From the IMG/VR virus record IMGVR_UViG_3300022902_000077: a stretch of 23,717 bases of DNA; one strand, 5' to 3'. The translations under genes were made by a program, and so were the position numbers. This DNA is from a virus. Shown here in pieces: positions 1 through 23,717 of this stretch. A model generated the notes under the pieces. The model made no database searches. It saw nothing but the letters and a program-made list of their open reading frames with translations, and had not been told where the DNA came from. Within the stretch, counting starts at the first letter, position 1. Each line of letters starts with the position of its first letter.

Positions 1-518
1 AACATACCAGCAAGAAATGCTGAATAAGACCAACGTATCCACCTATACTTAACAAGTGCGAGGGTCTTACCGCTAGTATACATTTCATTAGCTAGTGCAT
101 CATATATTGTGTCATCGGTTCGTAGCGTATCAGCATAATTTTCTTTATATTCTTCCACATCCAAATGAGAAAAATGACCAAAATAAAGTGGGTTGAAATG
201 CGGCGATGTTCTATCTAAATTTCCATCTTCATCTTTTGGATAATTGGTGTTTGGTATTATCGCTACTATCGCACACAATAATGATAAAATACAGCAAACT
301 GCAAAGAACATCAACGGATATTTCATTACAGGATTGTCTAATTCCGCAACTGTAACTGAAAACACAATCGCCGAAACTGTAATCATTATGTTGGCTTTTT
401 GATCAGCCATTATATTCAACCGCATCTGATTGGTAACATTCAATCTGAAAATGTTATCTACAGCAGTTCTATCTTCTGGTACATTGTCAAAAAAATTGAC
501 TGATTCTTTACTTTCCAT
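1..518 (-). CDS. Pycsar effector-like membrane protein (PycTM / DUF5706 family), 3' end off-window
   Basis: Hand translation from ATG at 518 is open to the window edge (172 codons): MESKESVNFFDNVPEDRTAVDNIFRLNVTNQMRLNIMADQKANIMITVSAIVFSV...PLMFFAVCCILSLLCAIVAIIP...FNPLYFGHFSHLDVEEYKE...MYTSGKTLALVKYRWIRWSYSAFLAGM. ADxKAN before TM1, P after TM2, NxLYFGHF and KY..(L/I)R.SY..F..G are the motifs I recognise for DUF5706/PycTM. Not in the ORF track. Confidence 0.82.
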   Translation of the reverse strand, partial: MESKESVNFFDNVPEDRTAVDNIFRLNVTNQMRLNIMADQKANIMITVSAIVFSVTVAELDNPVMKYPLMFFAVCCILSLLCAIVAIIPNTNYPKDEDGNLDRTSPHFNPLYFGHFSHLDVEEYKENYADTLRTDDTIYDALANEMYTSGKTLALVKYRWIRWSYSAFLAGM

Positions 519-520
519 CA

Positions 521-1279
521 CTACAATTGACTTTTTAATGTTTCTACATATTTTGTTATAGAATGAGTCAATCCATCCGTTTTTGAAATCAAACCATTAT
601 CGTTATCCGGCCCCCAATCCAACGACACACTATTCACAAAGACCCCTGTATGAAGAAAAGGCCAAGGAGGAGTGAAAGTAACAGGATCTGAATTACGAAC
701 CACACGAAAATGAATTGGTTGTCCTCCAGACAAAACTTGAGTAGATACTTTTGGTGATCCGTAAGAGAAAACTTGAACATTGTGACCTCTTTTATGTAAC
801 CACATTCCTACTATTTGTGCTATCGCACCGCCTAAACTGTGGCCTGTGATATAAACGGTATGTTCTAGTGTGTAGAGTTTTGCATTGTTTACAAAAGTAT
901 TGTCTATGGATTGCATAACATAAGTTGATGCATCTTTAAATCCTTTATGAAGATAAATTCCCAATACGTCATCTTTTACCAATCTTGCATCCAAATCTGC
1001 GAGAACATTATTTTCGTTTGCAGTACCTCTAACAGTGATAATTGTAATACCATTATTCTGTTTTACTTCAAATACAATCTCATCAGTTGAACCATTCTCA
1101 TAAATTGCAGCTGAATACTCTGCGTGTTCAATGAGTGATTCTATTGTAACTGGTAGAGTTGATTTATCACCACTTGTCGCACCCGCCTCTTCGGCACTCT
1201 TCGCACATCCACTAAGAACTAGTATCGTTCCTACTATGATGACTAGATAATTCCTCGCCCTTTTTCCAAGCTGTAGCAC
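521..1279 (-). CDS. Lipoprotein, class-3 lipase (alpha/beta hydrolase)
   Basis: GTG start with GGAG 9 nt upstream; basic n-region, hydrophobic h-region and lipobox LSG|C; VRGT, HKGF, nucleophile elbow GHSLGG, YGSPKV, DPV and a distal His (HSI), typical of Lipase_3. Confidence 0.88.
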   Translation of the reverse strand: MLQLGKRARNYLVIIVGTILVLSGCAKSAEEAGATSGDKSTLPVTIESLIEHAEYSAAIYENGSTDEIVFEVKQNNGITIITVRGTANENNVLADLDARLVKDDVLGIYLHKGFKDASTYVMQSIDNTFVNNAKLYTLEHTVYITGHSLGGAIAQIVGMWLHKRGHNVQVFSYGSPKVSTQVLSGGQPIHFRVVRNSDPVTFTPPWPFLHTGVFVNSVSLDWGPDNDNGLISKTDGLTHSITKYVETLKSQL

Positions 1280-1502
1280 TTAAAATCGCTCCAAATGATA
1301 TGTGAAATATTCCTCCACCTTCTAATGTAAGTGGAATCCAACGTGATGCGTCACAGATTAACCCTTTAGCGACCATCATATTACAATAACTATCCATCTG
1401 AATATTCCAGACAACCGGACCTATGAAAAAATCACATAAGCAAATGAAAAGATAAACGATGGCCGCCCAATCACGCCAAAATCTGTTGATTGTCTTATTC
1501 AC
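1212..1502 (-). CDS. Small membrane protein, putative holin (resembles the phage/GTA 3TM holin-like family)
   Basis: 96 aa, two hydrophobic segments; WRDWAAIVYLFICLCDFFIGP and WIPLTLEGGGIFHISFGAIL resemble the W-R..W.Y..IC.FDF / W.PLTL.G.G.FH pattern of phage proteins annotated as 3TM holins; GTG start overlaps the upstream TAG by 1 nt. Confidence 0.55.
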   Translation of the reverse strand: MNKTINRFWRDWAAIVYLFICLCDFFIGPVVWNIQMDSYCNMMVAKGLICDASRWIPLTLEGGGIFHISFGAILSATAWKKGEELSSHHSRNDTSS

Positions 1503-1843
1503 TATGCTTTCTTATCTGACATAGTAACAAGTGTAAGGATACTTCTTCCAGCTTCAATGGCAGTGTCAACAACCCATTCCAAATTTTCTTCGTCATAATC
1601 CCATTTTTCTCTGACGTATGCGACCAATTCATCATATTCTTCGTCATCAATGTCTGTAATTTCGGGAATAACATCTTCAATATTGTCAACTGCTTCAAAA
1701 AGTTTCTTCACAGGGTCAATGAAATATCTTGCATCTGTCCACGAAAACTTATCATCTGCTTTTGCTTTTCCAATTGCATCTACGAATGAAAAAATGAACT
1801 CCATAACGTCTTTAGTTTCTTTTATACCTTTAACTTCTGCCAT
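1502..1843 (-). CDS. Acidic hypothetical protein (113 aa)
   Basis: RBS AAGGA before ATG; stop overlaps the start of the holin-like gene; no recognisable family. Confidence 0.75.
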   Translation of the reverse strand: MAEVKGIKETKDVMEFIFSFVDAIGKAKADDKFSWTDARYFIDPVKKLFEAVDNIEDVIPEITDIDDEEYDELVAYVREKWDYDEENLEWVVDTAIEAGRSILTLVTMSDKKA

Positions 1844-16345: not shown

Positions 16346-16924
16346 TTATTCATCTGTTTCATCTCCACCAAGAACGTCTTTTCGATCCCAATGATCATAT
16401 GCCCAATTACAAGTATAAGTTTCTATTGCACTAGACTCCCAACTAAGAGGAATGCTAGATATTGAAGTTGGAAACGCACCTCTAAAATAATAGGTTTGTA
16501 ATGACTTCCCATTTTTACTATACTGAGTTACATTTAAATCTGTTTTGTAATCAGCATTAGTGCCTTCGTTGACTGCAGATGTTCCTACTATATCGATATC
16601 TCTAGTATTTAGGTCAGGTTTTGACACTAAATTTATCCATCTTTCAAGATTTTTTCGTATATCAAAATTTTCATCGTTGATAATTGTAGTTTCCCACGCG
16701 TCAAAAGTTCTATCGGATGCAACTTTTAGTGCTTTTCCATGATAGAATATGTCGTATGTTGTAAGTGTAGATGCGGGAATAGATGAGGCTGAAATTAGGA
16801 ATTTATATTTGTCACTACCGACTACCGATAGAGCGGAGGGGAAGTTAAGATTAACATTAAAAAGGGATGATCGTGCACCACCCCCTGTTAGATTTGATTT
16901 GAATTCTGAGATTCCGAAAGCCAT
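16346..16924 (-). CDS. gp19: Tail tube protein gp19 paralog 3
   Basis: SEFKSNLTGGGARSSLF, ASSIPAS, YHGKALKVASDRTFDAW.TT.IND, FP..I..I.LSWE, W.YD.W. Confidence 0.88.
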   Translation of the reverse strand: MAFGISEFKSNLTGGGARSSLFNVNLNFPSALSVVGSDKYKFLISASSIPASTLTTYDIFYHGKALKVASDRTFDAWETTIINDENFDIRKNLERWINLVSKPDLNTRDIDIVGTSAVNEGTNADYKTDLNVTQYSKNGKSLQTYYFRGAFPTSISSIPLSWESSAIETYTCNWAYDHWDRKDVLGGDETDE

Positions 16925-16944
16925 TCATTTATCTATTTCTATGA

Positions 16945-17490
16945 TTAGTTTGATGACCATGTATCAAAGCACCATTCTACTGAATACTCTTCTATACCGT
17001 CAGTTTCCCACGAAAGAGCAATCTCCCCAAGATTTGTAGGCCAAATATTATTAATGGTGTAACTTTGACCATCTTCACCGTCTTTGTTTACCTGAGTGAC
17101 GGTAGCTTGTCCCTCGAAATATGCTCCATCTACAGTTGCATAAGGACCATAATCCGTATTTCTTTCGCCGTCAAGTTGACCAGAAATTGTTCTCATCCAT
17201 TCCATGATCTTATTTCTCATAGAAAAGTCATCATCATTAATTATAGTAGTCGTCCAGTTATCAAAAGTTCTAAATCCAGCATATTTAATTGGTCTTCCAA
17301 CATAGTTTACAGGAAGAGCAGCAATAGTTGAGCCTGGAATCTGTGCAGATTTAACTAGTATAGTTTCGTTGTTTTTAAAAGATAACGAACCATCAACCGA
17401 ATTATCTATTTTTACTTTAAATAAATTAGGTCTTGCGCCCCCGCCGTTTGAAGCAATGTTAGATTTAAATTGTGAAACTGCAAATGCCAT
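16945..17490 (-). CDS. gp19: Tail tube protein gp19 paralog 2
   Basis: SQFKSNI..GGGARPNLF, SAQIPGS, YVGRPIKYAGFRTFDNW.TT.IND, WPTNLGEIALSWE. Confidence 0.9.
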   Translation of the reverse strand: MAFAVSQFKSNIASNGGGARPNLFKVKIDNSVDGSLSFKNNETILVKSAQIPGSTIAALPVNYVGRPIKYAGFRTFDNWTTTIINDDDFSMRNKIMEWMRTISGQLDGERNTDYGPYATVDGAYFEGQATVTQVNKDGEDGQSYTINNIWPTNLGEIALSWETDGIEEYSVEWCFDTWSSN

Positions 17491-17505
17491 ATTTTTCCTT
17501 TTAAA

Positions 17506-18069
17506 TTATTCTTGGTCGCCCAAGTCTGTGGAAGTAAGTTGAGCAGTTGTAGTGTAATAGTTATATTCCCAAGTAACATTAAATTCTTCCATTGCACCTG
17601 TTGTGTCATAACTTAACTCCATTGCATCAACAGCACTTGGCCAACAATCTTGAAAATTAAAGTCTATTGCTACACTACCATCTTTTGTATATTGTCTTAT
17701 TATAATCGTAGTATACCAATCAGCCGGAACCACACTCCCCGCTAAATTGTTTTCGCTTCCGTTAATATACTCTGCCCATTTCTCCATCGCGATTCTTATT
17801 CCATAATCTTCTGGATTAATGAACGTGGTGGATAAAGTTCCAAACGTCATTTCGCCAGGGATTTTAACTGTTCGACCAAAGTATTGCTTTTCTATTGGTG
17901 TAATAGTTAAGCCAGGAATTGAAGTAGTAGTACATTGATACTGAGATTTCCGTAGTGCCTCCAACCCTTCAGGTCCAGACGGAGAGTATATTTGAACGTC
18001 AAATAAACTAGGTCTAGCGCCCCCTAATGAGAGCGCCGACTTAAAATCTGAAATTTTTCCTATTGCCAT
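17506..18069 (-). CDS. gp19: Tail tube protein gp19 paralog 1
   Basis: SDFKSALSLGGARPSLF, TSIPG, YFGRTVKIPGEMTF, WPSAVDAMELSYD, EEFNVTWEY. Confidence 0.88.
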   Translation of the reverse strand: MAIGKISDFKSALSLGGARPSLFDVQIYSPSGPEGLEALRKSQYQCTTTSIPGLTITPIEKQYFGRTVKIPGEMTFGTLSTTFINPEDYGIRIAMEKWAEYINGSENNLAGSVVPADWYTTIIIRQYTKDGSVAIDFNFQDCWPSAVDAMELSYDTTGAMEEFNVTWEYNYYTTTAQLTSTDLGDQE

Positions 18070-20606: not shown

Positions 20607-21386
20607 ATGTCTAATAATATATATCATTACACCTATATCATTACAAATACAAAAAACCAAATGAAATATATTGGTGTACGGAGTTGTAGTTGTCCACCAA
20701 AAAATGATGAATATATGGGTTCTTCTAAAGTACTCAATGAAGTAATGGAGATATCACATGAACATTTTACAAAAACTATTATTGATACTTTTTCAACTAG
20801 AGCAGAAGCAAATATTAGTGAACATCAACTGCACAAAAAATATAATGTCGCACAAAATCCAGAGTTCTATAATCTTTGTAATGCCCCTATGGGATTTTGG
20901 AACAAGGGCATGAAAAAGAACGAAACCCCGGCCGAAAAACGTGAAAAAGCATTAAAACGTTTCAATTCCAAAGTTATTAAAACCAGTAATTGCCACGAAT
21001 GGAACGCTTCCAAACAAAAACAAGGTTATGGGATGTTCTCTTATGATGGAAAATCCAAACCAGCTCATCGATTTGCTTATCTTCTTCACAAAGGAGACAT
21101 CGCTGAAAATATGGTGGTTCACCAAACTTGTGAAAATAATAGTTGTGTAAATCCAGACCATCTTGTTTTACAAACTAAAAGTCAAAATAAAAAAAATTAC
21201 AACTCTACTCATGTCAGTAAAGAGATGGTAGAAAAAAGTAGCGTTAAATTTCTTTATCGTCTTCGTAGTGTTAGACCAGAATTGGAAAAAGAAATTGATG
21301 CATTACTGTTGTTACTTGTTACTGAAAAGATGAAAGATGATGATGACTTTGGTTTTGAAGAAATAAAGAAAGAAAATTATCTCTAA
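20607..21386 (+). mobile_element. Free-standing homing endonuclease gene: Seg-like GIY-YIG domain fused to an HNH/His-Cys (His-Me finger) domain
   Basis: YTYIITN...YIG...YMGSS...E...FYN at the N-terminus; CHEW...GYG...AHRFAY...G.I...V..TCENNSCVNPDHL...T..QN at the C-terminus; only gene on the + strand, between gp17 and gp18. Confidence 0.88.
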
Positions 21387-23717
21387 TAATATTCTCTCTG
21401 CCATTCTTGTCCAGCTGGTTGCCACACGTTATCATCGCCAGGGATTGAATGTTCATCTGGATCATGTCCATCTTCAATAAACCCAAAGGGCACCATTTCT
21501 TCTTCTATCATTTTCATTTGCTCGGAAAACATTTTTTCTCTTATATCTTGGTCTGTGAGTTCTCTGAAGTACCTCTGTTGAACTAACCAAGAAAAGAGAA
21601 CACAACACATCACCAAATCATCATGAGTTCCATCGTCTGCTTCCCACGATGTACTTTTTCCAATAAACGTTGTCAACTCACTTATTGTATCAAAATCTTC
21701 TATGATTAAATTGTCTCTCTCTATCATGTCTTTGAGAGTTGCACAACCAATTCGTTTTACTTGTTTAGTGGTACGGATTCCCATTGATACATTTTTAGAA
21801 AAACCTCCACCAATCTGTTGACCATTTCTACCGTGCATCGTGACCATCATCATATTTTCGTATTCCATATCATGATAAAGTATGTCAGCTACTTGTTGTC
21901 CTATGTCGTTTACTTCCACTAAAACAAATGCTTCGTTGTATTTCTGAGCAGCTGTAAAAATAACATTAGGATATAACATTGGTGAAATATCATTTTTTCG
22001 GTACTTTGCGACTTGACGGTAAGGTTGTTTCGTTACATCAAACAAAGAAAATGCAGAGTAATCTAATCCCACGCCTCTAGCAACATCACACACCATTACA
22101 TAAGTATGTCCCAATATCGGTTCTTGGTAAACATCCAATCCACCTTGTTGATAAACTGGTGTTTTGTAAGCTAACGAAAGAAGTTTCTCTGTAGAAATAA
22201 GTGTGTTAGAACTACCTAAGAACGAACATTCAAACTCAGACTGAAACTGCCGTTCCGAAGTATTCCGTATCGTTTTCTCTTTCCATTTTTCATCTCTGCC
22301 TGGAACTTGTGACCAATGAACTGAAATGGGGGAATAATCATTGTTTTTTTCTTCGGCATCTGTCCACAATTTGTAAAACATATTCATGCCGTTTGGAGTA
22401 GATACTATGAATACTTTTGTGGTTTGACCAGAAGAAATAGTAGGATAAACCGAACTGAAAAACTCTTCGGAAATATTGGAAGGCACAAATGCAAATTCAT
22501 CAAGAAATATGCAATTTGATACTTCTAAGTCATTTGCATAAAAGGAATGTACATCTTCAACGTGTAACAAATCATATACATCACAATTATTAGAATTTTT
22601 AACCTCAACAACGTCACAAAACTGATTATCTAATGTTCTTATTTTAGATTTTAATGTAACATCCTTAGCTGGTATAAACCCATTTTTGGTAGATATTTTA
22701 TGATCTGGCGTACACTTGATGCTATTGTTATCTGTTCGTATTTGTAGTGTTTTTTGATTTACACTTTTACTGATTCCATAAAACCTTTTCCATCCACCAC
22801 TCGTATATACTTCCCATCTACCAACTTCATTCCCTTGTTCCAAGGCCCGCCCTGAGTTTTGATCCGTCTTTTGGCCGATTCGCTCATTCGTTTTTTTGAC
22901 TCTTCTGATCGCTTCATACCACGATGTTTTTCGGCCGTCTTGCGTATTTTTTCTGGATTCTTGTTGATTTTCTCCATATGTTCTATGGTTTTTTTCACCC
23001 CCGTCAAAGCTTTGGATATTTTTTCTCCAAACCCCAAAGGCTTCTTCACACCCAACAGCTTCCCCTTCATGGTTTTTGACTGCTTCAATTTTTGTTCTTT
23101 TGGTATAGTTTTTCCTTTGTGAGAGTTTCCAATCTTTCTTTTTGTTTCTTCTGAATGTTTCGTCCCTGTTTGTATAATTCTCCGAGCTTGGGAAAATTCC
23201 AAAATTGACTGCCGCCGTTGATGTTCCGTGAGTTTCACCAAAACCCCCTGCCTGCCCTGGCACATTAGAAAATACGCGCACGACATTTTTGCTTTGGGCA
23301 TTCCCGATAGAAATTTTGGAAGTAGATGGTGTGCTATCAAATGCTCTTTGATTGTCAATTTCACTATATTGGTTATTTGGTTTCCGCCATTTAGAGATTT
23401 TGGTATTATGTGGTGTTTTTCTGATACGAGCTCTATGTCTAATGTTCTCAAAAGTGCTTTCTTCATCAGAGAAAAGTACCAATTCTTGTATTTGTTGTTT
23501 ATCATCTCCATACTCATATTTATAAGTATTCATTTCTCTGGATGAATTAGAATAAAAATCTGATATAGAAGTCTTGATTGTTTTATTATTAAAATTATCC
23601 TTTAATAACAGAGTAGAGCTACCAGATATGCAATTAAATGAACTTCCCCGAACAGCTGAACCAGAAGTCGCGGATGCAAGAATCTTTGAGCCATTTTCTA
23701 GCTCAATATTTCCCTTG
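21383..23717 (-). CDS. gp17: Terminase large subunit gp17 precursor (intein-containing; 5' end off-window)
   Basis: The frame of track ORF 21383..23533 stays open to the right edge: ...KGNIELENGSKILASATSGSAVRGSSFN|intein|CIFLDEFAF (Walker B), IVSTPNG, DVARG..LDYS, HDDLVM. Confidence 0.96.
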   Translation of the reverse strand, partial: KGNIELENGSKILASATSGSAVRGSSFNCISGSSTLLLKDNFNNKTIKTSISDFYSNSSREMNTYKYEYGDDKQQIQELVLFSDEESTFENIRHRARIRKTPHNTKISKWRKPNNQYSEIDNQRAFDSTPSTSKISIGNAQSKNVVRVFSNVPGQAGGFGETHGTSTAAVNFGIFPSSENYTNRDETFRRNKKKDWKLSQRKNYTKRTKIEAVKNHEGEAVGCEEAFGVWRKNIQSFDGGEKNHRTYGENQQESRKNTQDGRKTSWYEAIRRVKKTNERIGQKTDQNSGRALEQGNEVGRWEVYTSGGWKRFYGISKSVNQKTLQIRTDNNSIKCTPDHKISTKNGFIPAKDVTLKSKIRTLDNQFCDVVEVKNSNNCDVYDLLHVEDVHSFYANDLEVSNCIFLDEFAFVPSNISEEFFSSVYPTISSGQTTKVFIVSTPNGMNMFYKLWTDAEEKNNDYSPISVHWSQVPGRDEKWKEKTIRNTSERQFQSEFECSFLGSSNTLISTEKLLSLAYKTPVYQQGGLDVYQEPILGHTYVMVCDVARGVGLDYSAFSLFDVTKQPYRQVAKYRKNDISPMLYPNVIFTAAQKYNEAFVLVEVNDIGQQVADILYHDMEYENMMMVTMHGRNGQQIGGGFSKNVSMGIRTTKQVKRIGCATLKDMIERDNLIIEDFDTISELTTFIGKSTSWEADDGTHDDLVMCCVLFSWLVQQRYFRELTDQDIREKMFSEQMKMIEEEMVPFGFIEDGHDPDEHSIPGDDNVWQPAGQEWQREYY
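22759..23517 (-). CDS. HNH homing endonuclease with NUMOD3 repeats, nested in the +1 frame of the intein
   Basis: NNKY..WY..., EKHHIIPKS.NGGN...NIV.LT.KEH..AH.LL (phage HNH), then NUMOD3-like KHSEETKRKIGNSHKGK and KRSEESKKRMSESAK. Likely real start at 23505 (MINNKY). Confidence 0.9.
   Translation of the reverse strand: MSMEMINNKYKNWYFSLMKKALLRTLDIELVSEKHHIIPKSLNGGNQITNIVKLTIKEHLIAHHLLPKFLSGMPKAKMSCAYFLMCQGRQGVLVKLTEHQRRQSILEFSQARRIIQTGTKHSEETKRKIGNSHKGKTIPKEQKLKQSKTMKGKLLGVKKPLGFGEKISKALTGVKKTIEHMEKINKNPEKIRKTAEKHRGMKRSEESKKRMSESAKRRIKTQGGPWNKGMKLVDGKYIRVVDGKGFMESVKV
23517..23524 (-). promoter_or_regulatory. T4 late promoter TATAAATA inside the intein coding sequence, upstream of the nested HNH
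   Basis: Exact consensus formed by the intein-frame codons TAT AAA TAT; HNH ATGs follow at 23517, 23511 and 23505. Confidence 0.65.

Follow-up and report, generated by a model that had tools for sequence, protein, structure and literature searches.

The DNA examined here is a 23,717-nt stretch from a virus (IMG/VR record IMGVR_UViG_3300022902_000077), and this whole stretch is referred to as the window. At its left edge lies a minus-strand open reading frame that starts with an ATG at position 518 and runs off the edge, such that positions 3..518 hold its first 172 codons and its 3' end is open. Reading of the sequence bore out the earlier note made on this DNA, which had placed the start of the ORF 2 nt after the stop of a lipase gene: the lipase TAG occupies 523-521, and the ATG lies 2 nt beyond it. 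An alternative start, a GTG at 521, would give a product of 173 aa and overlaps the lipase stop as TAGTG; the overlapping stop and start suggest that the two genes may be translationally coupled. The gene and the cassette upstream of it consist of the following features:

3..518, minus strand: PycTM-family protein (PF18967, pJV1-SpdB3-like 3TM), N-terminal 172 codons, by profile match, hydropathy, and model

516..523, minus strand: gene junction TAGTGATG, read from the sequence, in which the lipase TAG overlaps a GTG and is followed by the ATG

524..1279, minus strand: class 3 lipase (E 5e-21), with a lipoprotein signal (…LVLSGC-AKS) and a GHSLGG serine motif

1215..1502, minus strand: TM96, a 96-aa small membrane protein with no Pfam or PHROG family

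1505..1843, minus strand: acidic protein of 113 aa, by composition (30 D+E vs. 14 K+R)

These genes are closely packed, the stop of the acidic-protein gene overlapping the TM96 start (TAGTG) and the TM96 gene overlapping the start of the lipase gene, i.e., its signal peptide and lipobox, by 68 nt in a different frame, at 1212-1279. The lipase and the acidic ORF are as the earlier note described them. Of the holin-like gene that it also listed, the small membrane protein stands, and the holin part is a lead from a language model that no family assignment accompanies. An Atlas search with TM96 returned viral hypothetical clusters only, one of which has GTA_holin_3TM in 11% of its members and is likewise treated as a lead. 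The Ala that follows the lipobox Cys of the lipase would suggest sorting to the outer membrane by the E. coli rule. At 1867-2115 lies a Glu/Lys-rich gene of 82 aa, of which a metatranscriptome contig (run X15) carries a version that is 27 nt shorter at 1984, in frame.

The DUF5706/PycTM identity that had been proposed for the left-edge ORF was upheld by a profile search. The 172 residues encoded in the window matched Pfam PF18967 (PycTM) over profile positions 5-107 of 107, with an E-value of 5.4e-23 and 81.9 bits against a curated cut-off of 27.2 bits, and they also matched three PADLOC PycTM models (best, 2e-16). A relative that is 97% identical (L001) supplies the whole protein, which is 222 aa long and scores 81.4 bits against PF18967. 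The window protein ends at residue 172, within the third membrane helix (TM3); positions 3..518 accordingly encode a cytosolic N-terminal helix, TM1, TM2, a cytosolic helical domain, and the first residues of TM3, while ~50 aa (TM3 and a Cys-containing tail) fall past the left edge. Hydropathy of the full-length L001 protein placed membrane segments at residues 42-60, 70-88, and 163-181, and an AlphaFold2 model (pLDDT 93, from an 86-row alignment) has helices that match these segments, in the order of a long N-terminal helix running into TM1, then TM2, a loop with a small β-bridge and short helices, a long helix running into TM3, and a helical tail. The N-terminus would lie in the cytoplasm, followed by two membrane helices, a cytosolic helical domain of ~75 residues, and the third membrane helix. 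Cellular homologues, which are 180-190 aa long, align with core residues ~12-183. Beyond this core the phage clade has ~40 C-terminal residues of its own, in which two cysteines are conserved (a few phage subclades lack this part); this tail would sit outside the cytoplasm. Three residues (D39, K41, and K157) do not vary among the 86 phage and cellular sequences compared, the motifs MADxKAN and FNPLxFGHF are retained and are invariant inside the phage clade, and the protein carries the conserved residues of PF18967, KY(R/K) being among those conserved family-wide.

Self-association was examined by predicting a complex of four copies, which gave an ipSAE of 0.45 vs. 0.00 for the best of three controls. 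It thereby passed a mark that, in the calibration, 20 of 30 proteins solved as homodimers and 1 of 23 solved as monomers attained, the run having used its own alignment and four copies, unlike the calibration set. In the four-copy runs at least 89% of contacts agreed and partner pLDDT was at least 65. The prediction supports self-association via the N-terminal helix/TM1 and the cytosolic domain, and the model gives neither a ring nor a stoichiometry. No solved relative was found by sequence, and Foldseek of the model against PDB and BFVD gave no match below E 0.2; a wide structural search returned generic helical bundles only (Z ≤10.3, under the level that is meaningful for helical proteins).

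The phage protein is under strong purifying selection, with dN/dS of 0.05-0.12 between the window gene and six relatives. A protein search returned 730 clusters (90% identity), every one of marine metagenomic origin, and at least 13 studies contributed the 14 seawater DNA runs in which the stretch itself occurs nearly whole. Three metatranscriptome libraries also contain pieces of it as contigs, which give no proof of transcription, strand, or level; one of these contigs is identical to positions 462-612 and spans the junction of the lipase and PycTM-family genes, and together the contigs leave ~75-440 of the window uncovered.

Apart from the cassette, the window is taken up by a block of T4 type comprising a large terminase with an insert, an HNH-type gene, sheath, three tube paralogues, portal, scaffold, major capsid protein, UvsY, UvsW, gp47, a 2OG oxygenase, gp46, and peptide deformylase, after which comes the cassette. 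The carrier is a T4-like phage of lytic type, the earlier note having called it lytic, and the evidence supports the window gene as a genuine PF18967/PycTM-family member of such a phage. The late-promoter motif TATAAATA, in its exact form, sits before structural genes and was not found before the cassette in the window. The cassette follows gp47, gp46, and deformylase, which are early or middle genes in T4. Several features of the block are recorded here in their own right. The large terminase frame (21383-23716, minus strand) is continuous, but TerL homology ends at ~22516 and resumes at ~23627; the gap is an in-frame, intein-like insert of ~370 aa, inside which a TATAAATA motif lies at 23517-23524. 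Between terminase and sheath, on the opposite strand, is an ORF of 259 aa (20607-21386, plus strand) whose homologues in related loci have HNH_3 / His-Me endonuclease domains, and it probably encodes a homing endonuclease. Three tandem paralogues of ~180-190 aa (16346-18069, minus strand) lie downstream of the sheath gene; they are likely tail-tube paralogues and are 35-38% identical to a duplicated family in another of the related loci (L020).

Scanning of viral contigs yielded 30 related loci at 60-97% identity, the ORFs of which were clustered for comparison of neighbourhoods. In 27 of the 30, the gene immediately upstream of the PycTM-family gene was F1, which encodes a protein of ~365 aa with a signal/anchor helix and an SBP_bac_3 domain (E 4e-11) and is usually preceded by F2 (~150 aa, one TM helix, CxxCH) and F3 (~115 aa, multi-pass). 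The CxxCH of F2 is a periplasmic, haem-type motif. The complete F3-F2-F1 block (e.g., L002:521-2433, plus strand) occurs in about 22-27 of the 30 loci, is not present in the window, and has no PHROG annotation. In most lineages it lies between gp15/gp16 and the large terminase, and in the closest relatives of the window (L002-L004 and L007) it precedes a block of acidic protein, primase, and ThyX; in L002-L004 a TATAAATA motif is located 86 nt before F3. The window and L001 differ from L002-L004 in that F3-F1 are absent between the lipase and the PycTM-family gene. The earlier note had proposed looking for DUF5706 genes beside lipases in viral records, and such adjacency was indeed found: the TM96-lipase pair adjoins the PycTM-family gene in 13 of the 30 loci, on either side of it. 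TM96 always comes before the lipase, the pair keeping this order wherever both were seen, while the acidic 113-aa protein has a homologue in one related locus only. Every recurrent neighbour in the 30 loci is an envelope-directed protein and none is a nucleotide-signalling enzyme; the PycTM-family gene is a cassette-type gene of a mobile envelope-protein island. Among the scanned neighbours there was no lysozyme, amidase, or transglycosylase, and no endolysin or recognised holin adjoined the gene at any locus. Between the PycTM-family gene and terminase, several relatives carry F10 (L014:983-1282, plus strand, and six other loci), a product of ~99 aa with one N-terminal TM helix, a coiled-coil-like periplasmic part, and a Pro-rich tail end, i.e., a spanin-like shape without a family.

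The gene is confined to phages in the collections that were searched. A tblastn search of 50,697 deposited phage genomes with the phage protein gave no match, and PHROGs held no family for it or for TM96, F3, or F10. Hits in species-representative genomes amounted to four MAG contigs (L031-L034), assigned to Nitrososphaerales, Chloroflexota, and two Flavobacteriales. These were considered as cellular hosts and rejected, since their flanks, where long enough, carry the same gene families as the viral loci (gp15/gp16 or F3-F2-F1), and they are most likely mis-binned phage contigs. With these set aside as phage DNA, the phage-clade gene was found in viral contigs only.

PF18967 itself proved to be much broader than Pycsar. 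It was present in 167 of 401 sampled Bacteroidota genomes (42%), mostly as a single copy, a frequency that is, to our knowledge, far above that of any defence system. When 42 of these genomes were compared by coordinates, one (G223) had a cyclase match within a few kb and eight had no PF00211 match at all, both counts being among the matches listed. The Bacteroidota copies (G009-G407; e.g., L043-L072) are mostly single HD-domain fusions of ~400 aa in a conserved neighbourhood, and the neighbours of this long form are metallophosphoesterases, GAF proteins, and transporters. A library-wide phmmer search returned 1,274 representatives, including such fusions and one protein with EF-hands. Among homologues encoded on plasmids, the Fulvitalea copy adjoins a cyclase and the Chondrinema copy does not.

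The phage protein is distant from all of these, its identity to any cellular homologue reaching no more than 41-46% in a search of 1.8 billion representatives. Of the cellular homologues, the nearest (P0126 and P0127) are on contigs too short to show context; the four nearest with a readable context (P0129, P0132 from a cyanobacterial MAG, P0136, and P0139; 35-41% identity) stand alone amid housekeeping genes and have no Guanylate_cyc neighbour. A maximum-likelihood tree was built from 154 domains, limited to the 150 best hits to the phage query, and in it the 14 phage sequences formed one clade (SH-aLRT 100), nested in a 39-row group (SH-aLRT 91) with all four of the context-known stand-alone homologues. 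The other main branch was formed by the HD fusions and two cyclase-adjacent sequences, both of the HD-fused type, the sampling including no canonical Pycsar PycTM (e.g., that of E. coli). As judged from this tree, the phage clade is old and monophyletic. The earlier note had read the gene as a Pycsar defence effector captured from a host. That reading is not supported: the family is widespread and seldom near a listed cyclase match, the nearest cellular relatives are stand-alone proteins in a housekeeping context, and the phage clade is old and diverged.

Such relatives raise an alternative in which the phage protein is a non-lethal auxiliary channel, i.e., a copy of housekeeping type that tunes the ion or solute balance of the infected cell, possibly with F1. 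It would accord with the closest cellular relatives being single-copy chromosomal genes amid housekeeping genes, with the occurrence of a family member in 42% of sampled Bacteroidota genomes, and with the position of F1, an SBP_bac_3 protein, directly upstream in most loci. However, the window and L001 are without F1-F3 and yet the gene is under the same strong constraint, it is accompanied in the window not by transporters but by a lipase and a small membrane protein, and the family members that have been characterised are toxic when active. We consider this alternative unlikely.

A cyclase was sought at several levels. Pfam scans of the window genes returned T4-type core genes only, with no match to PF00211, the class III cyclase domain. 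No cyclase was present in the 6.8 kb downstream of the PycTM-family gene in L001, where the genes encode an acidic 289-aa protein, a Zeta-toxin-like P-loop protein, a primase-like protein, ThyX, and ribonucleotide reductase. PF00211 was likewise absent from all 30 related viral records, which are fragments (1-42% complete, several hundred kb in total, five of them each 28-76 kb long), while control genomes gave matches. Among the listed PADLOC matches of 82 window and locus proteins (best 25 of 69 families, to E ~1e-6) there was no cyclase. A cyclase elsewhere in the phage genome is unlikely, with some room left for one by the fragmentary records. The statement in the earlier note that no cyclase is in view thus holds beyond the window, and the downstream contig it had asked for, as represented by the near-identical L001, yielded no cognate cyclase. 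The gene is supported as an orphan, and since the partner that defines a Pycsar system was sought and not found in these records, the phage protein is not part of one.

These searches bear directly on the idea of a cNMP-gated suicide trap, in which a cyclase encoded elsewhere in the phage genome, or cyclic nucleotides of the host, would trigger the pore and so exclude competitors or abort co-infection. All of the family-invariant residues are kept, characterised family members are activated by cNMPs, and the incomplete viral records leave room for a distant cyclase. Against this are the absence of PF00211 from the window and the 30 viral records, the lack of an adjacent cyclase in the nearest cellular relatives, and the fact that the gene changes genomic context together with envelope genes and never with a nucleotide-signalling gene. 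We therefore regard a trap as quite unlikely. No ligand site is defined for the family, so that its sequence speaks neither for nor against gating of the phage protein by cNMPs.

As to the host, the sheath protein shows no more than 52% identity to its counterparts in Pelagibacter phage HTVC008M, Stenotrophomonas phage DLP_6, and Methylophilales phage Melnitz, and the gp46 DNA is closest to Melnitz and to cyanomyophages. Placement of deformylase within the DNA-metabolism block is a core trait of pelagimyophages (PMC7029224), and the layout of the window resembles theirs in this respect. Based on these relatives and on the placement of deformylase, a marine heterotroph is the probable host, and it may be of the SAR11 or OM43 type. 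Streamlined hosts of the SAR11 type generally carry few defence systems, and if the pelagimyophage-like layout points to such a host, this would speak against an anti-Pycsar decoy, in which the phage protein would either poison the PycTM rings of the host as a dominant-negative subunit or act at the membrane as a sink for cCMP/cUMP. Predicted self-association through conserved helices would suit a poisoning subunit, and phages do counter Pycsar by removing the signal, e.g., with Apyc1 and sponge proteins (PMC13712596). However, the known sponges are small soluble proteins, and an old monophyletic clade at no more than 41-46% identity to cellular homologues is a poor fit to co-assembly with a particular host effector. 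A decoy also gives no role to the phage-specific periplasmic tail or to the envelope-gene neighbours, and we consider it very improbable.

The explanation that we favour, at a probability of roughly 0.5, is that the protein self-associates into a channel of the inner membrane which needs no cyclase and is run by the phage to its own timing. The PF18967 protein would assemble into a ring and form an inner-membrane channel, like EcPucTM, and the phage itself would express this channel from the mobile envelope-gene island, thereby changing the permeability of the inner membrane at a time of the virus's choosing. The likeliest purpose would be to assist, late in infection, in collapsing the membrane potential or in letting out proteins that degrade the envelope; the cell might instead be depolarised earlier. 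Channel activity, trigger, timing, and a part in lysis are all extrapolated from the family and the surroundings of the gene. A permeabilising or depolarising role fits the behaviour of active family members, the adjoining lipase and small membrane proteins, the phage-specific tail outside the cytoplasm, and the lack of a signalling partner. Of the three roles that the earlier note had offered, i.e., a trap, a dominant-negative subunit or nucleotide sink, and a repurposed pore, the last fits the envelope-protein neighbourhood best, and the other two, which require a host Pycsar system or cyclase, are less likely. Several observations count against a virus-timed channel, and against a classical holin in particular, namely the lack of an adjacent endolysin or recognised holin, the lack of TATAAATA before the window cassette, and the loose linkage to the lipase pair (13 of 30 loci). 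The channel may also be regulated and non-lethal, since the cellular orphans of its branch presumably spare the cells that carry them.

A broader proposal, which we put forward tentatively and hold to be doubtful, is that marine T4-like phages turned a Pycsar-type pore into a virus-run channel which, with TM96 and an outer-membrane lipoprotein lipase, and mostly also with secreted binding and CxxCH proteins, would constitute an undescribed mobile system for envelope breaching or lysis. If so, it would represent a new class of holin or viroporin that shares ancestry with a bacterial immune effector. Should the narrower idea of a virus-timed channel be true, a bacterial suicide effector and a viral membrane-permeabilising device would be linked by common descent. 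The locus is a tractable experimental candidate for the poorly known lysis and envelope machinery of marine T4-like phages of heterotrophs. We found no paper describing a phage-borne member in the literature on DUF5706, PycTM, spdB3, and Pycsar in phages. What has come to light is an abundant, strongly conserved, phage-specific clade of a pore family that occurs in seawater metagenomes from many studies and is missing from catalogues of cultured phages. A Pfam match to "PycTM" is not evidence of Pycsar, and pipelines that name such proteins "Pycsar system effector" overcall.

Among known systems, the PycTM/PucTM effectors (EcPycTM and EcPucTM) are of the same Pfam family as the phage protein and resemble it in having three membrane helices and a helical domain in the cytosol, in the residues invariant across the family, and in self-association, which for the phage protein is predicted. 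The hexamer of EcPucTM, with a channel of ~15 Å lined by TM2, is described in a preprint on Pucsar that names the family "pJV1-SpdB3 3TM" and in which cGMP could not be placed (bioRxiv 10.64898/2026.08.12.744502). The phage protein differs from these effectors in that it has no partner cyclase in any related record, is encoded by a lytic-type phage, has an additional C-terminal tail with two cysteines, and branches with cyclase-less stand-alone proteins, away from the cyclase-adjacent ones that were sampled. Those stand-alone short bacterial proteins (P0129, P0132, P0136, and P0139) are its nearest relatives, with a core of ~180-190 aa and no adjacent cyclase; unlike the phage protein, they are chromosomal and uncharacterised and have neither the C-terminal tail nor an envelope-gene cassette. 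The HD-PycTM fusions of Bacteroidota (~400 aa) have the same 3TM domain at their C-terminus and mostly no adjacent cyclase, but they carry an N-terminal HD phosphohydrolase domain and belong to the other main branch, and some (the Fulvitalea plasmid copy and that of G223) adjoin a cyclase. In Streptomyces, spreading of the plasmid that encodes SpdB3 depends on this protein, which is toxic alone in E. coli (PMC4447253). SpdB3 is likened to the phage protein by name and behaviour, as a membrane protein of a mobile element that acts without a cyclase; its function is intramycelial DNA spreading with TraB and other Spd proteins. Finally, holins and viroporins might be considered functional analogues, being small, oligomeric, virus-encoded proteins of the inner membrane that alter permeability on a viral schedule, although the phage protein has no sequence or fold relationship to them and no adjacent endolysin, and its putative N-in/C-out arrangement of three membrane helices differs from that of class I holins.
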